In this document: in pieces, positions 22,649-58,970 of the stretch
Layout of the letters: the number at the start of each line of letters is the position of its first letter
How positions within the stretch are numbered: the stretch's first letter is position 1
NCBI RefSeq assembly: GCF_037042905.1
Contig: NC_087251.1
Span: 8,496,001 to 8,560,000, forward strand
DNA length: 64,000 bases
Source: Lytechinus pictus
Lineage: Eukaryota
Reading direction: 5' to 3'
The notes under the pieces: model-generated
Database searches by the model: none
What the model was told of the DNA's origin: nothing
Seen by the model: the letters and a program-made list of their open reading frames with translations, nothing else
Translations under genes and position numbers: made by a program

Positions 22649-25184
22649 TTAATTTTTTATACTGTGCATAACAGCAATTTTGAACCCGTATTTTCAGTTC
22701 TTCTATAGTCAACTGCATTCCGAATTGAACTCTAGATATTTTTTATTATTTAATTTCATTCAATCTCAACACCAATTTCAAACTTGGCTCGTGTTTGCAT
22801 ATTTGACTGAGGATGAGGATGATCTGATTAGATTGTGGGGTTTCAAGTTCAAGGGCCAAAGGACATTAGTTCTTTCATGCAATAGCCAATTAACCAAGAG
22901 AAGGGACATCTTCAAACTTGCTTGTGCATATATGGGAGTGAAGATACTCTGACTAGATTTGGAGGGTCATGAGTTCAGAGGTCATTGTTTTAACAGTTTA
23001 GAAGTACACTGTGTGATATATTTCTGATCAAGCAGTGACAGTGGCATACATTTTGGTCTGTGCAGTTGAGAATCTATCTAGTTTTCTTTGGTTTTTGCTT
23101 CAATATGAATTTTTAAAACGTCTATCAGGACTGTATAAAATGTGTATATATTATGTACATTATTAAATTATTTATTTTTCATTAAAGTGAATGAATACCT
23201 GAATGCAATTTTAGTGTTTTGGATAGAAAAGTTTAATAAAGTTTTTCTAGAATTATCTGGATTTGTTTTGTATTTTGTGGTGTGTTTTTTAAATTAATTT
23301 TGTTTTATGTTTTGCTCATTATTTTTAATGAGTCAAACTTATATTGTTGACAGTTCTGAGAGAGAGAGAGAAAATTGAACTGTGTGACTAAAAATACTGC
23401 TAGACGTTGAGAGAGGAGAGGTCATGATAGAGACTATAAATAGGTGCAGCCTAGTAACATTCCATTAAGGATGAAAGGACAATGGATTTATTAAAGTGGA
23501 TATTAATAGAGACAGTATAGCACAGTAGATTTAGTGTAATAATGAAGGAACTTATTAATAATTAGACTTAGACATACAATTAATGGTATGAGTGGTATAT
23601 TGTAACCAAGGTGAAACAGAAATAACTGATACAACTGGAACAAGGAAAAGAAGTATAAGAAAGTAAGAGGGAGAAGGTACATGTATGGTAACCCCAGATT
23701 TTTTTTTAGAATATCAAATAGAAAATCATAGAAAACAAAAGTGACATATCTTCATATGTACTAACAATTTACCATATGCTAGAATATATTTCTTCCCCCC
23801 CCCCAAACCACTAATCTTTTTCAAAGGGAAGTGCCAGAAAGCAATCGTCAATTTCTTCCATAACGATGTTTGTACAAGCAGCCCTTGTCAGATCACATCT
23901 AACCTCCCGTTTCATAATATCAGTGAAGCCATGTAATGCCTATAGCTGAGATAGAGTAATTCCAACCACTCCTTTTCTATCTCTTTGTCTATCTGTCTGT
24001 CCGTTTCTCGTACTTATGTTGCACTGCAATATCAAACTCGCAGAATTGCAAGAACTCATTCCAATACTGCAGCGTCCAACAAAATTTTAGCAAGATTTGA
24101 ATAGGGATTTCATCAACAATCTTCGGAAGGAAGCTTAGTTATTTCCGTCTTTTCTCTCTTATCACATACAAAACGTAATCAAACGCATGTCAGACAATCA
24201 AAGCTATCAAGTATTCTTACATTGCACATCTGTTCACGCCTACATTGACATAAGAAATCACACAAAGCTAATAACCTCACAAGGAAAAGGTAAGTCACAT
24301 TCGTCCATTTTACATCATTTACATATTTTTTCAAGCCCATACCGGCCTATACACAATTGTCTGATCTTGTTTTAAATAGAAATATACAAAACAACGGGGA
24401 AATTTGATCGGAGCTTGAAACTAAGTGTGGGCACCAATTAGTACTTACATTTCAGGAAATAAGAGTTTGATTTATATATATTTTCCATGAAATTTTGAGA
24501 ATATTACGTTCGCATGCACATGTTATTCTAACCCCTCTCCCTCGATATTTGTTACTCTTTTTGTAAATATCATCGAATGAACATTTATACAGAAAGAGAG
24601 TGTCTGTATAGTCACGTTGAAAAGTAAGATTTCTTAATCATATGCTATACGTCCAATATGGATTTAAACATCCTAACAGACAGATTTACCAAAAATCGGA
24701 TTTGAAATAAAATATAACATTTATTTCAGAGTTATATAACACATGGCGCTGATATTCACCATTGCTTCCTTCGTTTAGTCCATCCATGATCTCTTGAAGA
24801 ATATAAACGGGGCAAATTCCAACTTGATCGAAACAAAGCCAATCATAGGATCATAGTCCTGTTAGGAAGCCTGTTCTTTGGTGAGTAACTCAATGGTGTC
24901 CTTTTCCGTACCTTTTAATGTTAATCAATGACAAAGTTTCATTTAGCTGGTAATTCAACCAGTCCCTTCCCCTTTATAAATGAACATTCGCCCCGGCCCC
25001 TTCCCAAACTTAGTCAAACGAGGACTGAGAAAGGTGGGCGGTGCCCTTGCTTGATTGCGCAACAACACCGCACGTGTTCGCAAACATATACATAGCGGCC
25101 ATCATAGTTCTCAGTTTACAATCGTTCGCGAGTTTGCTATAAAGTGCTGGTTCGCCTGGTCGTTGTTCTTAACTAACTACCGTC

Positions 25185-26357
25185 ATGAAATCCTTAATAA
25201 CTTCTTTCAATTTAATCCGTAGGATGTCTTCATTGGGCAATCAAACCATGTATGGCTTCACTGTAACATCTCTTGATGGGAAACAGAAACAATTGTCTGA
25301 TTACCAGGGAAAGGCATGCATGATCATCAATGTTGCATCTCTTTGAGGCACGACCACGCGCGACTACCATCAGCTCAATGAGCTGGCGGGAAAGTACGGG
25401 TCGCGCGGCTTTGAGGTTCTGGCGTTCCCCTGTAACCAGTTCGGGCATCAGGTAAATTTATTTTCTCAGTGTTAATTTTTGACTCTGGACTTCTCTAACT
25501 TCAGCTCACATGTTAAGAAACTAATTTTTTAATCATTTATTCCCCATTTATCAGCTCAATACAGATGGAAAGGTTTGGGCCATGGCCCCCAAAAGTTCTA
25601 AAACCAAGAACAAAAAAGAAAAGGAAACGATAGTGTAACTGTAAGATCTATTATTTTCAGAATGTGTCAAATCTATAGATTCTCATGAAAGGGGTGATAA
25701 TTTGTCTTCTCGCTCGCTTTGCTTGCTCAGGACTGATATTAAGCAACATTTTGCCACATGCACTAATCTGACTATTATTTTTACAGTGGCTTACACTACA
25801 GACAAAGAAAAAAAGAGCGAATGGTACAAAATATATTATTTTCTGAATAATGTCAAAATCTAACATAAAATTGAATTTTTGTAATAAAAATGTCAAAGTT
25901 TTTGCTCGATACGCCAATCTGGCCCCCTCAAAATTTTTGCCTCATGATGCCACTGCCTGCATGTTCATACCATAATGTATGACCTGGAAATTGTTTGGCT
26001 CTTGCCCCCCTCCCCTTCCCTGGCCACTGACCCCTGTACACATACATGCGATATTACAAGCTAACCTATTTCCTTTGAAATATTTAAGCTAGCCAGTGTA
26101 ATCGATCAATGGAAAAGATTCATAACTGACTGCAAATATTACAGACCATCTACAAAGGAATACATATGGGCAATTCCATAAAATATGTACATCCGACCCT
26201 TATCTGTATGTGGTACCTTTATAAAATAATCTGTCTCTGAATACTTGTTCTTTTGACAAGGGACCATGACTTGGTCAGTTTATGAAGTGAAGTAAGACTT
26301 GAGAAAATTGGGGGTCTGACGTACAAAAAGGTTGATCATTTTATGGAAATATATATA

Positions 26358-26412
<55 letters not shown>

Positions 26413-29400
26413 TTGGGGGGAGGGTGTTTTAAAGTTTTGACTTTATGGGAGAAATACAGATCATAGAAGAGAAATACGGCAATATTTCCTCAAAACTAAA
26501 AATTACATATGACTGTTTATTTGTTGACATCTTGTATTATCAATTTATTCATGATGATATATACAAAATGCAGGTGCCAACAACTACTCATTTTTCGATT
26601 GAATTGAATTCATTGGAAGGGTCATGGTGTAGTGGTTCAATTAGTCACTTAACTCCTATGGTATGCAATCAAAAGATAATAAACCTCAGAAATTTTCTAT
26701 GGTTTCAAATTAATTGAATGTCAGTTTAAATAGGACTGCATTTACCCACACCAATAAAAGAAAAAGGAAGATAGCAATTGAAAACTGTGTAAGGAAGAAT
26801 GTTAGATGAAGAGAGGGACACAGAGAGAGAGAGGGGGGGGGTGAAGGAGGGGGAGGACCTTTAGGGATAGGGAGAGTGAGGGGCAGGATAAGGTAGGAAG
26901 AAAGAAGATGTTAATTGTACTATACAAAGTTGAAAGTTCAGGGAAGGGCTTGAGCTTACTATTTCATTGTTTTATGTTGTATTCATTCCCCTTTCGTCAT
27001 CATTAACACCATTATTGTCATTATGGTTATCAGAAGCGTACGCAGGATTTTTGAAAGGGGGGTTTTCGAGTTGAATGAAAATTTGACAAGCAAAAAAAAA
27101 GCCCCCCCCCAAAAAAAAAAAAAAAATTTCATGAAATATCTGAGGGGGGGGTTGAACCCCTGTAAACCCCCCCCTGCGTACACTTATCAAGTGGCAACGC
27201 CATGTGCTGTTTGTGTTTACAATATGAATAATATATTGTAAAGCATTAAAATGTGAAAGCTAGAGAAAATGTTCAACAGTTATCAATGATCAGCATAATA
27301 TTAAGCTCCTCAACTCCTAAATCAAGGGTTGAGGGTTCGAATCCCACCCTGTGCTTATGTCCTTTGGCAAGGCACTTATCCACATTTGTGACTCTCCACC
27401 CAGTTGTTAAATGGGTATCCCGGTAGGATGTGAACGTCAATGTGATTAGATTGGCACAAGTGCACCGATAAACGGTTGCCTGGCAAAGAGAGTCCCCAGG
27501 GAGTGGAGATGTTTGACTTTATGTGTGGAACAGTGATGGATCCTATGACTGGGGTAATAATAATTACAATTTAAAGTGCTTAGAAAGCAATGTATGAAGC
27601 GCTATATAAATGAAACTATTGTTATTATTATCATTATTTGGCAATTGCCAATATTCAGAAAAAAATTGCAAAATGATTCAAAATTTACAACATGTACATA
27701 TATTGTAATAGTTTTAGGAAAAAATGTTAAAATGTAATTTTGATTAATTCTTTTCAGGAAATATTGCTTCTATCTCTTTTGCACGTTCCTATAAAGAAAG
27801 CCAAAATGGTATATATTTATTCTCAATAATTCTACCACTTAAATCATTTATATTGTTCTGTTCCAGGAGAATTGTAAGAATGAAGAGATTCTGAACTTGC
27901 TGAAATACGTCAGACCAGGACAGGGTTATGAACCACAGTGAGTATTGTTTTGGCAAATTCTGCTAACAAGGTTAATGGATAAATAATATGGCAGTCTTCC
28001 CTTTGACTTATTAAGTCAGTCTATCAATCTCTTCTCTACGGAGCCTTTTAAGTGCCATCGACTTGATGACTTGGCGAGATACTTAAAGGAGAATGAAACC
28101 CTTGAAACCAGCTGAATCCATATAAAAGAGAAAAATCAAAGAAACATATTGTTGAAAGTTTGAGGAAGATTGAATGAATAATAAGAAAGTTATGAGCATT
28201 TGAATATTGAGATCACTAATGCCATGTAGATCCTCCCATTGGCAATGCGACCAAGATCTGTGATGTCACACACGTACAACTCCCTCATTACTTTAGTACT
28301 TATTTCACTTATATTCTCACTTTTATAGAGTCTATCACAAGGTGAGGTGTTCTCTTTATGAGAGGACAAGTACAGAGGTTTCACAACATTATATCATTGA
28401 TGAATCGTTTGTCATATGATTAGAATGAGCAAAAAGAGATGTTTTGGGGTATATTTTCAGTGTCCAAAACTGGACAACTCTCCCCTTTTGGACACTGAAA
28501 ATGTACCCCAAAACATCTCTTTTTGCTCATTCTAATCATATGACAAACGATTCATCATTGATATAATGTTGTGAAACCTCTGTACTTGTCCTCTCATATA
28601 AAGAGAACACCTCACCTTGTGATAGACTCTATATAAAAGTGAGAATATAAGTGAAAAAAGTACTAAAGTAATGAGGGAGTTGTACGTGTGTGACATCACA
28701 GATCTTGGTTGCATTGCCAATGGGAGGATCTACATGGCATTAGTGATCTCAATTTTCAAATGCTCATAACTTTCTTATTATTCATTCAATCTTCGTCAAA
28801 CTTTCAACAATATGTTTCTTTGATTTTTCTCTTTGATATGGATTCAGCTGGTTTCAAGGGTTTCATTCTCCTTTAATCTTGCCATGTCGACATAATAACC
28901 TTATTATGTCGACATGGCGAGATACATTATCTCGCCAAGTTGACTTATAAAAAGTTATATGTCAACTTGGCGAGATATTTGGACTCTCGCCGGGCCTTGG
29001 ACACTTCATATCTTGCCATGTCGACATATAATGTTTTATGAGTCGACTTGGGTAAGATAAAATATCTAGCTATGTTGACATATAACTTTTTATAAGTCAA
29101 CTTGGCGAGATAACGTATCTCGCCATGTTGACATAATAAGGTTATTATGTCGACATGGCAAGATAAAGTATCTCGCCAAGTCGTCAAGTCGATACTTACT
29201 AACACTGCGTGCATAAACTTGTATAGGCCTACTGCTTTGTTTTGGTCTGCTATTGTTTTTTTTAAACTAAATATGAAGTAAGAATATTTTACAGCAGGTA
29301 TATTACACCATGCATCTTTTGTAATATGATATTGTATTAGAATAGACAACAGTTGTGTTTATAATCCTAAATGATATATTTCAAATTTGTATTCTATATT

Positions 29401-29743
29401 CTTTTGTTTCCTTTGTGCATGCACAGCATAATCACATTTTTTTTTTTTTTTTTGCATTAACAGATTTCCAATATTCTCCAAAGTAACGGTCAATGGTAAG
29501 GACAGCCATCCTCTCTTCACCTTCCTCAAAACCAGCCTCCCTTTCCCTAGTGACCTGGCAGCAGGGGCGGGATCAGTCCTCATGAATGACCCTAAGGGAA
29601 TCATCTGGAGTCCTGTTAGACGTTATGATATCAGCTGGAACTTTGAGAAGTTCTTGATTAACAAAGATGGAGTACCAGTTGCAAGGTACAGTCCCAAACT
29701 GCCCCCTGCAGACATGGCTGGAGATATTGAGAAGCTCTTGTAG
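25185..29743 (+). CDS. GPX1: Selenocysteine-containing glutathione peroxidase, GPx1/GPx2-like (~205 aa, Sec at codon 54)
   Basis: Exons 25185-25451, 27867-27937, 29464-29743 (TAG). Translation: ...[13 protein letters not shown](TGA 25344-25346)[13 protein letters not shown]...[47 protein letters not shown]...[24 protein letters not shown]. It has the catalytic tetrad U/Q/W/N and the GPx1/2-type oligomerisation loop. GPX1 versus GPX2 orthology cannot be resolved by eye. Confidence 0.95.
26615..27637 (+). mobile_element. tRNA-derived SINE split by a ~650-bp insertion
   Basis: A box TGGTGTAGTGG ~26625; B box GGTTCGAATCCC ~27334; body like the SINE at 8851; ATT-rich tail. Confidence 0.75.
28087..28872. 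mobile_element. Fully palindromic TTAA-flanked MITE (Kolobok-like)
   Basis: TTAA-AGGAGAATGAAACCC ... GGGTTTCATTCTCCT-TTAA; near-identical ~380-bp arms. Inserted in an older palindromic GTCGAC/GGCGAGAT element (28057-29193). Confidence 0.9.
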
Positions 29744-30849
29744 GCTGTGGCATATGCTGCAAAAAAATTATGTTCAATGTTATTTCAAAACAAATCTTTC
29801 CATGATTTGAATTATTTCAAAACAAAATCTTTCCATGATTTGAAATAATTTAATGGCTTTCTATCAAATGGAAAAAACAAATTTTAGTCATTGACTTTGA
29901 AAATAACACTCGCACATTGAATTATCTTTGAAAAAAGCTCGATATTGACAAAGAAACTAAATCTTTAAGTTGTATCACTGTGTATGACATGGGAATTATA
30001 TTTCCATTTCAGATTTTCTGTTGATTTATTAATTTGAGTTTATTTACACAATTTAATACTTTGTTGATTTTTTTCTTAATAAAAATCAGGAACTCTGTTG
30101 TTGGGCATTAAATGAGTATTAATGTTTAAAATATATTGCCTTACATTGTTTACCTCTTGTTGTACATAGGCAGAAGGTAGACCTTCATTAGCATTGTTTT
30201 TTCAGTTTCAATATTCTTTATTAAACTTTCTTCTTGGACATTCATGAACATTTACCTGTTAGAAAATAAAGTCAAGACAATCATGCATTTTGTATGTAAT
30301 TCAGCATGAAATAGCCCCCCCCCCACCCCCGTTGGGGAAATAATTGGTTAACCCACTCATATGATTATGTGCTATATTCAATGTATAATTGATGCCAGCT
30401 TAGCCAATCCTATAATGTGATCCCATATCTGATTATATGTAAAGCATTAATTCATCAATCAGTATTTTGTGTGTGATTTTAACCTTGACAATGTTATCAA
30501 CTAGGATAACCTGTAACACTTCCATTGATTATTATTTATTCTTCACAATAGTATTTATTTGTATTTGCACTTGACAGCTTTTATTTTCTGTGTTGTCTTT
30601 TTTTCAAAGACCATTTTTCCTTTATGATAGTATTGTTTTTAAATCAAGCCTTGAAGAAATGATATTTGATGTGTTGGAAAACCGATGTACTTTAAGAAAA
30701 AAAAGGAAACACTGAAAATAATGGTTTGTTTTTATGTGCTTTGACATTCATTAGTCTTCAGGGTCAGTATGTAGATGTGACATGAGAAGTATTAGTATTG
30801 TATGTGCCTTTATTTCATGCTTTCTTTACCTCTTGCAGATGTCTCCCAT

Positions 30850-30930
30850 TGATTTTTATTCTCATCTATGATGGCGTTGTCTTAAACTCTTAATAGAGAG
30901 AGTAATGCCGGATGCTTTACAGAATCTAAT
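30850..30930 (+). promoter_or_regulatory. SECIS element (type II/form 2) in the GPx 3' UTR
   Basis: ATGA at 30868-30871; helix GGCGTTG(TCT) pairs with (AGA)gTAATGCC; unpaired AAA 30884-30886; apical mini-helix CTCT-taat-AGAG; 3' GA at 30911-30912. Lower helix GATTTT/AGAATC. Confidence 0.85.
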
Positions 30931-31799
30931 CAAACGCAATGCAAGAGATAAAGTAAACATTTGAAGATCATTTTACATAGAGAGAAAATATTAAAATAAC
31001 CACCAAGAAAAGTTTTGATTGCTCAGATTTTCTTTGTCCAATGTCTCAACCACTCCAAATATGGGATCCCTATGTTAATACCTTGATTAATCAGTTTTTC
31101 GGGCCACATAATTTCACATATTTTTGTATTGTTTAGGCTTCCACCAACTGAGAGTTTAGAAGGCCAGCATTCACTAACTACTTTTTAAAGCCAAATGGTC
31201 AATCATTTTTTTTTTCTTTTTGCTGCTTGTTGTCTTGCAATTGTTGGAGAAAAAAGTGACAATGATTAGGTGTTTAGAGGGTGATACGACATATGCTTTT
31301 GTCTGTGGCATTTGCTCCTTAATATCTCAGAGGGAATAGGGTTTTGAGTTAGGATTGTAAGAGAATTTCAGTTCAGAACAATGTAAAGATTAAGATCAGG
31401 GTTTATTTAGTTTTGGAAGTTAGGTTTTGTCGGAGCAATTGTCGCCAGAGCTCATGTCATGGAACCATTTAGAGATTATATAGAATATATATATCTGTAA
31501 ATGGTTCCATGACGTGCTCTGGTGTTGTATATTGTGTTGAAGGCATGTTCAGCTAAAGGAGAATAGGATGGGTTGCTCAGTAGGGGGCCTCTTGTCACTT
31601 CAATAGCTCAATGGAGGTAAAATCTTTGTGGGTTGAGGAGCTTAATATTATGCTGATCATTGATAACTGTTGAACATTTTCTCTAGCTTTCACATATTGA
31701 TGCTTTACAATATATTATTCATATTGTAAACACAAACAGCACATGGCGTTGCCACTTGATAAGTGTACGCAGGGGGGGGGGGAGGTTTACAGGGGTTAA

Positions 31800-32490
31800 C
31801 CCTATAGCACCTACAGATTCCTATGCATAATGGCAATTACTCACTGGAGGAAACAATAAAAATGGTAATAAGTAGGCATTGTTCCAAACAAATTGAAATA
31901 GTTTTTTATAAATTTACTTTTGTTCATTACAAGTTATATCATAGGACCTGTTGAATAGAATGGTACATGGCAAAGTTCAATCAGATGTACGAATATTGAC
32001 CTTTGACAATCGTTTGCAGAGCGAGAAGAAAAAAAACAAAAGTTTGGGTTTAAGCCGCCCCAGTCCCACGCCTTCAAAAAAATGTAAAGTATCACTGACA
32101 GAATACAAAAGTTTTCGCCAAATCTTGGATCAAATATGTCAAAAATTAATTCCAACTCACATCTAGATGTCACTCTGTGTGATATCCAACGTTTTGATGA
32201 ACATATAGCAACGCCCGAGCTTCTTCGGCGAAGTAAGTGGTTTTCCGAGACATGGACGCAGCCATCTTTGCTGAGATCGACTGCGCAACAGTCTGGAACT
32301 TGATCGTTTTTTCTCTATTATACTCAATAGGAGCATACACTTTTCTATGCAGATCTATATAGCAGCCAACCTATACGGTATGCACACGCAATATTACCAC
32401 GGTAAATCATAGACAAGAGATACTATAGCGCAAAGAAAACGTACAGGCGGTTCAGTGTGTAATAGGAAGGGCGGTTCAGGTGCTATAGGG
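31800..32490. mobile_element. piggyBac-like non-autonomous element
   Basis: TTAA TSD (31796-9, 32491-4); 13-bp TIR CCCTATAGCACCT. The empty site is visible in the paralogous copy near 27150. Confidence 0.88.
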
Positions 32491-33119
32491 TTAAACCCCC
32501 CCTCAGATATTTTTTGATAACTTTTTTTGGGGGGGCTTTTTTTTTTGCTTGTCAAATTTTCATTCAACTCGAAAACCCCCCTTTCAAAAATCCTGCGTAC
32601 GCTACTGATAACCATAATGACAATAATGGTGTTAATGATGACGAAAGGGGAATGAATACAACATAAAACAATGAAATAGTAAGCTCAAGCCCTTCCCTGA
32701 ACTGTCAACTTTGTAGAGTACAATCAACATCTTCTTTCTTCCTACCTTATCCTGCCCCTCACTCTCCCTATCCCTCAAGGTCCTCCCCCTCCTTCACCCC
32801 CCCCCCCTCTATCTCTGTCCCTCTCTTCATCTAACATTCTTCCTTACACAGTTTTCAATTGCTATCTTCCTTTTTCTTTTATTGGTGTGGGTAAATGCAG
32901 TCCTATTTAAACTGACAATCAATAAATTTGAAACCATAGAAAATTTCTGAGGTTTATTATCTTTTATTGCATACCATGTTTTAACATCTATTATGTCATT
33001 TCCATTTAGAGACTATTCCAAATAGGATGCAATAAATAAATTGATTTTAAAAATGACAACAAAGCCTGCTTGATCTTAATTATACCTGCATGAATCCTTG
33101 TGCATATGCATTGCACATA

Positions 33120-34810
<1,691 letters not shown>

Positions 34811-54968: not shown

Positions 54969-55496
54969 ATGGCAATGGGGCACTTCCATTGACGGTTGGA
55001 TACCATATGCCCGACCATGGGGTCTCGAAAAGCACCCTAAACAAGTATTTTCCATATTCTGAAAATGAACCCCTTATCAAGTAAATTGGCGTATGAAACC
55101 CTACCGTTAACAAGTATTGGAAACAAAACGATACTCGATCTTCATTCTTGGCAAAACGTATTCCCTGAATTTGAACCCCTAATGCCCTATGCTATGTCAC
55201 CGACGTCATGGGCGTCGATCGTTCGTCGGTTTTGGTTTTACCATCATACAGCCGATACAGCCCCACGTACCTCCTCCCGCGCCGGGCGGGCCCACACCTC
55301 GCGCAAATCGTACCGGTACTCCAAACACGTAATGTTGACTAGTGTTGGGGCAAAATTAGTACATCAAAACATTTTAGTCTCTTTTTATATACACTGTAAA
55401 AAAAATTCTGAATCAGTAGTTAACACAATAATGTATTTAAGTAGAATTTACAATTTGTATTTTTTTTTCGTTTTTTCAAGTAGTAGTTTACTTTAT

Positions 55497-58400
55497 CAAG
55501 ATTTTGAAAACATATTTGCTGTAAAAGGCCTTCACTTTGTACATCTAAATGTTAGATCTATTCTACCAAAAATTTCAGAACTTCGAATTATTTTTAAGGG
55601 AAAGAATCTTGCAGTCATTGCTTTCACAGAAACATGGCTAAATAACTCGGTGAACGATGAAGAAATCAATATAGATGGATACAAAGTAATACGCAATGAT
55701 AGATTATCAGGCTCTGGGGGTGGTGTATGTTTTTATGTCCGAAATGATATTGCATTCAATATCATAGATGTTTTAAGTACAGGTGATTCTGAATCACTGT
55801 GGATTAATTTGCTTCTACCAAGATCAAAATTATTGCTGGCGTCATTTATAGGCCTCCGAAAAGCAATCAATTTATTGAGAAGATGTCAAATATTCTCGAT
55901 ATATTAAAGAAAGATGATGAAATTATACTTTTAGGCGATATGAATGTTTGTCTTTTTCAGAAATCTCCACTGGCTAAAAAATATACTGACTTATTGAGTC
56001 TTCATGGATTTAGCCAACTCATCAAAGATGCAACCCGTGTCACTCACACATGTTCTTCTTTATTGGACCATGTGATTTGTAATAACGAACAAAAAATAAG
56101 TCAAAGTGGTGTTATTGATCTTGGTATAAGTGACCATTCTTTTACTTTCTGTACACGAAAGAAAATTAGGCTGGCTATAGGTGTTCACAGAACCACTGAT
56201 ATCAGATCGTTGAAAAAATATAGCGAAGAATCTTTCAATCTTAAACTGTCTGCCGTTGATTGGTCAGATTTAACCCAATGCACTGACGTAAATAAGGCTT
56301 GGTCAGTTTTTCAAAATACTTTTATTTCAACGTTGAATATGATAGCGCCTCAAAAACGGATTAGAATTAAACAGAGATCAGAAAACTGGATGACTAAAGA
56401 TATTATTTCTCTTATTCGAGAAAGAAATGTGGCGTATAAAAAAATGAAGAAAAATCTAAGCGATCACGATTATGACACGCTTTCCAAAAGATACAAGAAA
56501 TTAAGAAATATGGTTCAAAGAGAGGTGAAAAAGGCCAAATTAGAATACCTACAAAATAAAATAGAAGAAAATAAAAATGATTCTAAAAGACTTTGGCAGA
56601 ATCTAAAAAGTTTGGGATTAAAAAAGAAAAATGGAAAGGACCAAGAATTAGTCGTTTCAATTGACGGAGAATTATGTCATGATAAGATAACTATTTCCAA
56701 TAAATTCAATTCCTATTTTACAAATGTCGCAGCTACGTTGGTAGATAAACTTCCATCTTGCAAAGACATTTTCAGTGCAGACAGTGAAAACATTCGTAAA
56801 TTTTATGAAAAAAAAGGTATAAGCCAAGATAAATTTGAATTATTACCTGTTAGTGATCAATTCATTTTTAATGAGTTGCGTAAATTAAATGTATCAAAAA
56901 GCACTGGGTTAGATTTGATACCTGCTAAATTTCTAAAAGAAGGAGCAAAGAGTTTGTACAAACCATTAAATTTCTTAATAAATCTATCTATCTTTACTAG
57001 CACTTTCCCAGAGGATATGAAAATTGCAAAAGTAACTCCTATTCATAAGAAGAAAGATAAAACTGCTGTTGAAAACTATAGACCTATCAGTGTTTTAAGC
57101 ATAGTATCCAAAATTCTAGAAAAGGCGGTATGTGTTCAGATCGAAAAATATTTTAAAGAAAATGATATGATTTACGAATATCAGTCAGGTTTTCGACATG
57201 ACTATTCGACTGAGACATGCCTTATTCACTTGACTGATTATCTGAGAACAAATATGTCTAAGGGACAATTCGTTGGGATGGTACTCCTAGATCTTCAAAA
57301 AGCATTTGATACAGTTAATCACGGCATCTTATTGAAAAAATTACAAATAATGGGTTTTAACCAGGCTACTGTAGCATGGTTCAAATCCTACTTGTCGAAT
57401 CGACATCAAGTAGTGGCTATTCGCGATATTTGTTCCAAAATTATGCCTATAACGTGTGGAGTTCCACAGGGAAGTATTTTAGGCCCAATCCTATTTTCAA
57501 CTTATATCAATGACATGTCTATTTGTTTAAAAGCTGACTGTAAATTATTATTGTATGCAGATGATAGCGTACTACTTTGTTCAAATGCCAACCCAAAATT
57601 TGTTGAGGAAAAACTTAGCGAACAGCTGTCTACATGTGTCGATTGGATGACTGATAATAGATTATCGTTACACTTAGGCAAAACCGAAAGCATTCTGTTC
57701 TGTTCTAAAAGTAATCATAAAACTTCATTTGAATTTGAAGTATCATACAATAATAAGATAATTCATAGGAAAGAATCTGTAAAGTATTTAGGCATTGAGT
57801 TGACTAGCTCCCTTTCATTTTCATCTTTAGTAGAATCAATCGTAAAAAAGGCGAATGCCCGTTTGAAATTTTTGTACAGGTATCAAAGTTGTATGGATCA
57901 AAAAGCAAGGCGTATTCTCTGTTTTGCTCTTATTCAGAGTTTATTTGACTATGCCAACCCTGCTTGGTTTAGTGGCATAAGCGAACTCGATAAAAAGAAG
58001 TTGAAAATTATACAGAATAAAATGGTTAGATTCATTAGCTGTTCTGGTCCCAGAACCCATGTTGGCTACACCGAACTCTCTGGAGCAGGTTTTCTTGAAG
58101 TCAACAAAAGATCAAAACAGCTTATTTTGCACCACGTGCATAAAATCTATCACAATAGATCGAATCATTACATTGGATCAAACTTTAATCTAGTTACCGA
58201 AATACATAACTATAATACAAGAAACAGCCATTTCAATTTTTGCTTACCAGAAAGGATAGGTAGTATTGGTAACTCATTTTATTACAATGCTATAAAACAT
58301 TGGAATTCCCTTCCCAATGATATAAAGGAAATAGGAAACTTTTTGCATTTTAAGAGGAAATTGAAAGAATATCTTTCACTTGAGAGTCAAAAAGAAGATG

Positions 58401-58970
58401 CAAATGATATGTTGTACGGTTGATTTAGCCTGAATACTGACCTAGTTCTTTTCTCTTCTCTACTAGGTATTATTATGTATTTTACAGAGTTTGATTGAAG
58501 CTTCGATATGTCCTTTCTTCTATTCTTTCTATTTCTTTTATTTCTTCCTATTCTCCTCTTCTTGTTGTTATTGTCGTCACGTTTATGCTGTTGTTCTTCT
58601 CCTTATTTATTTCCCTTCGTTATCAGTTTCTTCCGTCTCCTTCTACTCCTCGTCCCCTCTCTTCTTCTGTTCCTTCTCTTCCTTCTCCTTCTTTTCTTCT
58701 TCTTCTTCGTTATATTCTTGTATATATCTTATTTATTGTCTATATATCTTATTTATTGGTAATAGTAAATTCTGATTTTTTTTCTTCATTTTTAATATGT
58801 AAATAGTATAATTTTAACATTTTATTATCTTAATTCTGTATATTGAGGACCCCACTGGAAATAAGCTTTCGAGCTTTCGTGGGTCATCCTGTGCAAGCCT
58901 GTTGTTTTAATGCTACTGTATATATGTTATGGTGACTTGCCAAATAAAATCAATCAATCAATCAATCAAT
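55497..58970 (+). mobile_element. 5'-truncated non-LTR retrotransposon (L2/Crack/CR1 group) ORF2 plus 3' UTR
   Basis: APE endonuclease motifs (HLNVRS, AFTETWL, RNDR..GGGVCFY, LLGDMN, SDH) and RT motifs (YRPISVL, DLQKAFD, GVPQGSILGP, YADD, YLG). 3' UTR ends in AATAAA (58943) + (AATC)n. 5' boundary approximate. Confidence 0.92.
55883..58423 (+). CDS. LINE ORF2 (C-terminal endonuclease + reverse transcriptase), separated from its N-terminal APE part by one frameshift near 55829
   Basis: 846-aa open frame with all RT motifs. Upstream, this frame reads IIAGVIYRPPK, which continues the APE domain begun in the other frame (…INLLLPRSK). Confidence 0.9.
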   Translation: MSNILDILKKDDEIILLGDMNVCLFQKSPLAKKYTDLLSLHGFSQLIKDATRVTHTCSSLLDHVICNNEQKISQSGVIDLGISDHSFTFCTRKKIRLAIGVHRTTDIRSLKKYSEESFNLKLSAVDWSDLTQCTDVNKAWSVFQNTFISTLNMIAPQKRIRIKQRSENWMTKDIISLIRERNVAYKKMKKNLSDHDYDTLSKRYKKLRNMVQREVKKAKLEYLQNKIEENKNDSKRLWQNLKSLGLKKKNGKDQELVVSIDGELCHDKITISNKFNSYFTNVAATLVDKLPSCKDIFSADSENIRKFYEKKGISQDKFELLPVSDQFIFNELRKLNVSKSTGLDLIPAKFLKEGAKSLYKPLNFLINLSIFTSTFPEDMKIAKVTPIHKKKDKTAVENYRPISVLSIVSKILEKAVCVQIEKYFKENDMIYEYQSGFRHDYSTETCLIHLTDYLRTNMSKGQFVGMVLLDLQKAFDTVNHGILLKKLQIMGFNQATVAWFKSYLSNRHQVVAIRDICSKIMPITCGVPQGSILGPILFSTYINDMSICLKADCKLLLYADDSVLLCSNANPKFVEEKLSEQLSTCVDWMTDNRLSLHLGKTESILFCSKSNHKTSFEFEVSYNNKIIHRKESVKYLGIELTSSLSFSSLVESIVKKANARLKFLYRYQSCMDQKARRILCFALIQSLFDYANPAWFSGISELDKKKLKIIQNKMVRFISCSGPRTHVGYTELSGAGFLEVNKRSKQLILHHVHKIYHNRSNHYIGSNFNLVTEIHNYNTRNSHFNFCLPERIGSIGNSFYYNAIKHWNSLPNDIKEIGNFLHFKRKLKEYLSLESQKEDANDMLYG

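Follow-up and report, generated by a model that had tools for sequence, protein, structure and literature searches.

The question raised by this locus is whether a GC-rich stem-loop, placed within the coding sequence just downstream of the in-frame UGA of a GPx1/2-type gene, might represent a local recoding signal, that is, a selenocysteine (Sec) redefinition element (SRE) cooperating with a distant SECIS, as proposed by the initial annotation of this DNA. SREs have been validated in very few genes, and both their prevalence and the reason why some selenoproteins continue to be synthesized under scarce selenium are open questions. In the passages available to us, SREs are named in SELENON, SELENOT, SELENOO, SPS2 and SELENOP (PMC5727441, PMC8704476, PMC4561486, PMC9496622), SRE candidates are reported at at least 5 of the 36 human Sec codons, with the remark that they may be more common (PMC3159437), and GPx1-type mRNAs are presented as the standard case of inefficient, selenium-sensitive recoding (PMC8704476). 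No SRE is named for a GPx gene in the passages retrieved by our full-text searches, which covered few subscription journals, so that such an element may already be in print. If a GPx1/2 SRE exists, and if the same geometry is present in other eukaryotes, the element would extend to the best-studied selenoprotein family.

Coordinates given without a locus name are positions within the window, i.e., the whole 64,000-nt stretch of Lytechinus pictus DNA analyzed (NC_087251.1), and the GPx gene lies on its + strand (Table 1). The coding sequence comprises 205 codons distributed over three exons and contains a single in-frame TGA (25344), embedded in NVASL-U-GTT; homology and the presence of SECIS-like elements suggest that this UGA (25344-46) is read as Sec. 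The peptide encoded by exon 1 shares 84% identity with the Strongylocentrotus purpuratus protein A0A7M7PU75 and no more than 65% with every other match, and the top matches of this S. purpuratus orthologue carry the names GPx1 or GPx2. The assignment to the GPx1/2 class is also in agreement with the sequence motifs, WNFEKF among them, with the long insert containing PVRRYDI and with a Pfam GSHPx match. In all four runs analyzed, loose ends continue from 25452 into exon 2, which implies that the hairpin region is present in spliced RNA, while the exon 2-3 junction was placed on the basis of GT-AG sites and protein homology. No GPx paralogue was found within the 64-kb window. Two 5' forms of the transcript were observed: in the first, an upstream exon (~24200-24289) is spliced to 25223, thus skipping the first ATG (13 of the 191 raw RNA reads of run X22), and in the second, transcripts starting near 25108 include the ATG at 25185 and a 13-residue basic N-terminal extension, which is also present in S. 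purpuratus. The two forms probably correspond to mitochondrial and cytosolic isoforms.

Table 1. Features of the GPx gene, of the hairpin and of the downstream elements (positions within the window)
Feature	Position	Strand	Remarks
GPx1/2-type exon 1, coding part	25185..25451	+	ATG 25185, second ATG 25224
Predicted Sec codon: in-frame UGA of NVASL-U-GTT	25344..25346	+	GPx catalytic position, by alignment with the GPx1/2 catalytic column
10-nt spacer	25347..25356	+	contains the 5' arm (25351-55) of the competing pairing
Outer stem, 5' arm	25357..25365	+	Thr-Arg-Asp-Tyr codons
Inner helix	25367..25389	+	2 bp + 7 bp, 3-nt AAU loop
3' bulge	25390..25398	+	9 nt
Outer stem, 3' arm	25399..25407	+	Gly-Ser-Arg-Gly codons; common to both pairings
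Exon 2	27867..27937	+	exon 1-2 join supported by reads
Exon 3, coding part up to the TAG stop	29464..29746	+	GT-AG sites and protein homology
SECIS-like element 1	30615..30681	+	AUGA core, AAA bulge, UGA; Rfam SECIS_1 28 bits, E 0.25
SECIS-like element 2	30859..30924	+	AUGA core, AAA bulge, GGA; Rfam SECIS_1 31.5 bits, E 0.028

As for the distant SECIS that the initial annotation assumed, a SECIS-like element is indeed present downstream of the gene, but the idea of a single one did not hold, as two such matches were found, both scoring (28 and 31.5 bits) below the Rfam gathering score of 35; the fold of the second one has a z of -2.76. The two elements, both well formed, stand in tandem downstream of a gene that has a single Sec codon, and in the passages of the literature at hand two SECIS per mRNA are described mainly for SELENOP. 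Assuming colinearity, the end of the 1836-nt contig from run X13 would fall near 30925. Both SECIS-like elements are preceded by two AATAAA signals (30078, 30265), and therefore short isoforms devoid of a SECIS are possible.

The architecture of the stem-loop is the one originally described. The arms CGCGCGAC (25357-64) and GTCGCGCG (25400-07) are exact reverse complements of each other, the stem begins at +11, 10 nt past the UGA (25347-56 being the spacer), and the folding of 25357-25407 returns the inner helix within a structure of -25.5 kcal/mol. As a whole, the hairpin consists of 9 + 2 + 7 bp with a three-nucleotide loop and a bulge of nine on the 3' side, the ninth outer pair being U-G. 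A rival to the outer stem, unnoticed in the initial annotation, is the pairing of CGACC (25351-55) with GGUCG (25399-403), which begins 4 nt past the UGA and over nucleotides +1 to +66 exceeds it in stability by 1.8 kcal/mol. In unconstrained mRNA (12 combinations of isoform/context and span settings), the pairing probability of the outer stem ranged from 0.24 to 0.89, and that of the inner 7-bp helix was 0.99 in all 12. When the first 6, 9, 10, 12 or 13 nt after the UGA were blocked, the outer stem reached 0.94-0.97; with 15 nt blocked, it collapsed to 0.05. This collapse and the lower energy of the competing pairing in free RNA speak against an SRE-like role. With the UGA in the A site, approximately 9-12 downstream nucleotides are covered by the ribosome, and if this footprint applies here, the 9-bp outer stem is the structure expected with a ribosome on the UGA, since it dominates when 6-13 nt are blocked. 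Two further candidates were discarded: a longer stem pairing the UGA itself, which is a minimum free energy fold, had a probability of at most 0.05 in 11 of the 12 settings (0.48 in the other one), and a second structure spanning the exon 1-2 junction showed ordinary stability (z -1.0).

The stability of the hairpin was then compared with that of synonymous recodings of the same peptide. Over codons +1 to +22 the fold reaches -28.9 kcal/mol, with a z of -4.1 against uniform or own-gene codon usage and of about -2.8 to -2.9 when the GC count is matched (-2.81 in the GC-matched synonymous set, where 13 of 1500 shuffles were as stable). The window of nucleotides +1 to +60, which according to the part of the paper available to us is that of the original SRE screen (PMC3159437), gave a z of -2.98 (p 0.007). 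Over the 25357-25407 window none of 200 dinucleotide shuffles was as stable (z -4.55), a value inflated by the choice of a window fitting the hairpin. The 66-nt window following the UGA is also the most stable of the 15 along the GPx coding sequence. As a calibration of the null expectation, 69 distinct Cys-GPx windows (among the metagenome matches listed, mostly bacterial) had a mean z of 0.11 with a standard deviation of 0.94, only one of these 69 falling at or below -2 and none at or below -2.5. The hairpin thus stands out at roughly the 1% level, and its site was fixed beforehand by the UGA. The initial annotation had listed outcomes that would speak against the element, such as a fold no better than that of codon shuffles; this was not what we observed (p 0.007-0.009 in 60-66-nt windows), nor did any other of the listed outcomes that could be examined computationally appear. 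The signal depends, however, on window length: among 11 lengths, z was -1.7 at 51 nt, -2.6 to -3.1 at 57-72 nt, -1.8 at 75-81 nt and -1.1 at 90-105 nt, and over all computations it was -1.5 to -1.8 at 75 nt and about -1.0 at 90-105 nt. The loss of significance at 90 nt and beyond counts against the SRE-like reading.

This dependence fits a different explanation, according to which the hairpin is a compositional by-product, i.e., a fold arisen by chance where GC3- and CpG-rich codons cover the conserved helix of the active site, the first exon being unmethylated. Codon choice downstream of the UGA is in fact peculiar, and the enrichment in CpG-rich codons reported at the outset is real: there are nine CpG in the 66 nt following the UGA (observed/expected 1.35) vs. 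one in the 159 coding nucleotides preceding it (0.18), and exon 3 contains three (0.19). NCG codons were chosen at four of the five eligible positions of +1 to +22 vs. 2 of 36 in the pre-UGA part and exons 2-3 (p 0.0007), both arginines of the stem are encoded by CGC, which is used for none of the six others, and GC3 is 18/22 vs. 72/161 elsewhere (p 0.0009). GC3 is nonetheless high throughout the 35 post-UGA codons of the exon, being still 0.77 at codons +23 to +35, beyond the hairpin, which counts against a cause residing in the hairpin only. Moreover, the protein motif (TRD...GSRG, QLNEL) already sets many of the pairing bases, YGSRG being present also in one crinoid and one reptile GPx, and under a model with GC3 fixed at 0.82, 6% of the recodings contain the inner six pairs and 2% contain an 8-bp helix of some kind. 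The promoter region (24000-25184) has a CpG observed/expected ratio of 0.9-1.6, and we considered a spill-over of this CpG island as a full explanation; it was rejected, since the coding stretch between the promoter and the UGA, which is nearer to the island, is CpG-poor. The same CpG-poor stretch weighs against the by-product in general, as does the finding that shuffles matched for both GC and CpG are still beaten (z -2.75, p 0.008), and an origin by composition leaves unexplained why the most stable window lies right after the UGA in three of the ten other genes described below. On balance, we regard the by-product as an unlikely explanation.

Natural variation was analyzed in four of the 24 runs listed, two each from the related organisms A and B. 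Eight variable coding sites, seven of them synonymous, fall in exon 1 before the UGA, and a single one after it: the replacement 25398 G>A, which changes Gly to Arg in one contig of run X13, is located in the unpaired bulge, leaves the outer stem intact and makes it the lowest-energy fold. Synonymous changes affect none of the 35 post-UGA codons of exon 1 vs. 7 of the 53 preceding ones (p 0.024, in a comparison of two close organisms). In the same two organisms the hairpin codons alone (0/18) give p 0.12, and counting all changes per nucleotide (1/105 vs. 8/159) gives p 0.069. The low post-UGA variation is only suggestive, because five of the seven upstream synonymous changes fall in the variable N-terminal codons 13-28. 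No variant occurs in the hairpin arms, and the four urchin runs are too closely related to exhibit compensatory changes. As to the protein, the only difference from S. purpuratus in the hairpin codons is AG>TA, another member of the same cluster being identical.

The invariant stretch, which begins 27 nt before the UGA and reaches the end of the exon with its splice donor, also suits the idea that selection acted on something other than recoding, such as a CpG-rich regulatory site in the DNA just past the promoter, exonic splicing signals within the 100 nt that precede the donor at 25451, or a fold that influences mRNA stability or pausing and not Sec delivery. At the DNA level the two arms are a CpG-rich inverted repeat, and the exon is reached in two upstream modes (a start near 25108 and splicing from the exon ending at 24289). 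Against this idea, all 13 third codon positions in the helices (codons +4 to +20) are paired, and two of the four A/T-ending codons lie in the loop and the bulge, a distribution that is partly due to the way in which it was defined. In addition, three of the other UGA-GPx genes discussed below (L002, L003 and L014) fold equally far downstream of the UGA in contigs that are intronless over this stretch, the stems of L003 and L014 being AT-rich. We consider selection of this other kind rather improbable, and slightly more so than the compositional origin.

If the stem were linked to Sec decoding, similar structures might be expected downstream of other catalytic UGA codons of the family. The comparison set consisted of ten non-bacterial UGA-GPx genes (L001-L006, L014, L016, L162 and the viral L082), in which the UGA occupies the catalytic codon and on that basis suggests Sec; two bacterial UGA genes, L024 and L032, were not counted among them. 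A metagenome scan, yielding at least 80 mostly bacterial loci, provided at least eight eukaryote-like UGA genes (L001-L006, L014, L016); a pattern scan found one UGA-GPx in genome contigs (L162) and none in viral contigs, and a scan of viral proteins found one UGA gene (L082) among 80 loci. Weak Rfam SECIS matches were present in two of the seven genes scanned for them, L003 being among those with none. Over codons +1 to +22, with 1500 shuffles each, z was -5.0 in L003 (no shuffle as stable), -3.8 in L014 (1) and -2.6 in L002 (9); weak values were obtained for L016 (-1.9, 60/1500) and L162 (-1.6, 105/1500), and no signal for L001 (-0.4), L082 (0.0), L004 (+0.3), L005 (+1.1) and L006 (+2.1). 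Hence, in the window used for the urchin gene, p is below 0.01 for 3 of the 10 genes, among the matches listed. The combined p is 5e-5 for the ten genes, 1.4e-4 without L016, which is related to L002, and 1.5e-3 when only the seven GPx1/2-type genes are taken, again leaving out L016; at nucleotides +1 to +60 the combined values are 0.0013 and 0.006. A z of -2.5 is reached in 3/10 post-UGA windows vs. 2/134 windows elsewhere in these genes (p 0.002), and the post-UGA window ranks first in L002, L003 and L014, but a rank test across all ten genes is not significant (p 0.076). The pattern is therefore one of a few strong cases and not of a general shift, in a small sample whose Cys-GPx controls are mostly bacterial. 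A window of codons +3 to +22, selected with the data already in view, was kept out of these statistics.

The stems of L002, L003 and L014 start at +8, +12 and +12, respectively. Each of them, like the urchin stem, pairs with different partners, so that they are not homologous pairings, and a single ancestral pairing common to GPx genes was ruled out. The hairpins of L003 (47-115) and L014 (296-360), in two unrelated contigs, are very strong and begin 11-12 nt past the UGA, the L014 stem counting ~14 bp in AT-rich codons; both are good SRE candidates. The stem of L002 (300-345) is kept in the related L016 (2154-2200) despite GC3 values of 0.91 and 0.32, and the sole AGG among the seven Arg codons of L002 sits in it. 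Compensatory changes were found at none of its 15 pairs, five of which carry one-sided changes only, and identical codons are used at 6 of the 12 residues shared by the two genes in +1 to +14 vs. 29 of 123 elsewhere (p 0.055). The contig bearing L162 (also L081; NZ_WIPK01000080.1) is a 627-nt contig of a bacterial assembly with an intronless UGA-GPx1 that by eye resembles a fish GPx1, and it is likely a contamination.

The comparison with known systems, as far as these are described in the passages available to us, places the urchin hairpin closest to the SELENON SRE, which is likewise a coding stem-loop just 3' of a Sec UGA, although the 3' elements of the urchin gene are only SECIS-like. The number of pairs is similar (18, including U-G, in the urchin and 16 in SELENON; PMC3159437), whereas the spacer is longer (10 vs. 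6 nt) and three helices, a 9-nt bulge and a 3-nt loop replace a near-continuous stem with a 5-nt loop. The urchin stem also has a competing pairing, unlike that of SELENON. In SELENON, stem, loop and spacer all matter to SRE activity (PMC8704476). With SRE1 of SELENOP, and with the SREs predicted for SELENOT, SELENOO and SPS2, the urchin hairpin would share the condition of an accessory, non-essential structure near the UGA. The disruption of SELENOP SRE1 lowers recoding by 20-50% (PMC5727441, PMC9496622, PMC4561486), and SELENOP also has two SECIS; however, the urchin GPx has a single Sec, and SRE1 overlaps or abuts the UGA, unlike the urchin stem. Viral and cellular readthrough signals (the alphavirus, tobravirus, furovirus and Drosophila kelch stems and the MuLV pseudoknot) offer a further parallel, being 3' structures with a spacer in the same 7-12-nt range; in the source consulted, readthrough stems have 9-14 bp, start 7-12 nt past the stop and show reduced synonymous variation (PMC3159437). 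These systems differ in that they lack a SECIS, use near-cognate tRNAs, have in many cases long loops and read UGA-C, the urchin context being UGA-G. Finally, the bacterial SECIS of Sec-GPx genes (L024, L032) is a hairpin shortly past the UGA in the same gene family, but the urchin gene is spliced, belongs to an animal and has SECIS-like elements in its 3'-UTR and an AAU loop in its hairpin. The identity with a bacterial SECIS was rejected on the basis of the spliced gene and of Rfam, which returned no match at 25340-25420 (E<=5), and hence no bacterial SECIS family there.

Taken together, three features expected of an SRE, namely a coding position 3' of the predicted Sec UGA, a short spacer and a stability exceeding what protein and composition require, are found here, and by analogy with the systems just mentioned we lean towards the view that selection has maintained the hairpin as an accessory, SRE-like element for recoding. 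The local recoding signal proposed at the beginning is thus supported in part: position, shuffles, codon use, synonymous invariance and analogous stems point to a selected structure linked to the UGA, but the conservation signal is marginal and extends past the hairpin. The possible effect on decoding is drawn from SELENON, SELENOP SRE1 and the readthrough stems with 7-12-nt spacers. According to this model, the ribosome arriving at the UGA would cover ~9-12 nt and thereby remove the competing pairing; it would then meet the 9-bp GC stem at its mRNA entry channel, and the stem, as SELENON and the viral readthrough stems suggest, might slow unwinding or disfavor the action of release factors. 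The additional time might allow SECIS-SBP2-eEFSec to deliver the Sec-tRNA. Sec insertion would thereby increase modestly, on top of the activity of the 3'-UTR SECIS, and the stem would not be an essential signal. More tentatively, SRE-like stems may recur in eukaryotic Sec-GPx mRNAs, with several origins, at +8 to +12 and with lineage-specific codons and partners, so as to be missed by human-centered alignment searches; on the same speculative level, the urchin stem might be a two-state switch converted by the ribosome, with two tandem SECIS serving one UGA. The stems of the urchin gene, L003 and L014 represent short natural constructs for asking whether position and stability suffice.

As for the surroundings, intron 2 harbors an 800-nt foldback element, whose arms are 95-98% complementary, and 53-nt palindromic repeats (28083-28876, 28874-29186), which are probably non-autonomous transposons. 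A stop at 34358-60 breaks the reading frame of a Tc1/mariner-type transposase (33548-34570), and the endonuclease/reverse-transcriptase ORFs of a non-LTR retrotransposon occupy 55041-58423. Intron 1 (26671-27321) and the sequence downstream of the gene (31625-32965) share dispersed repeats in inverted orientation (155-305 nt, 96-97%).
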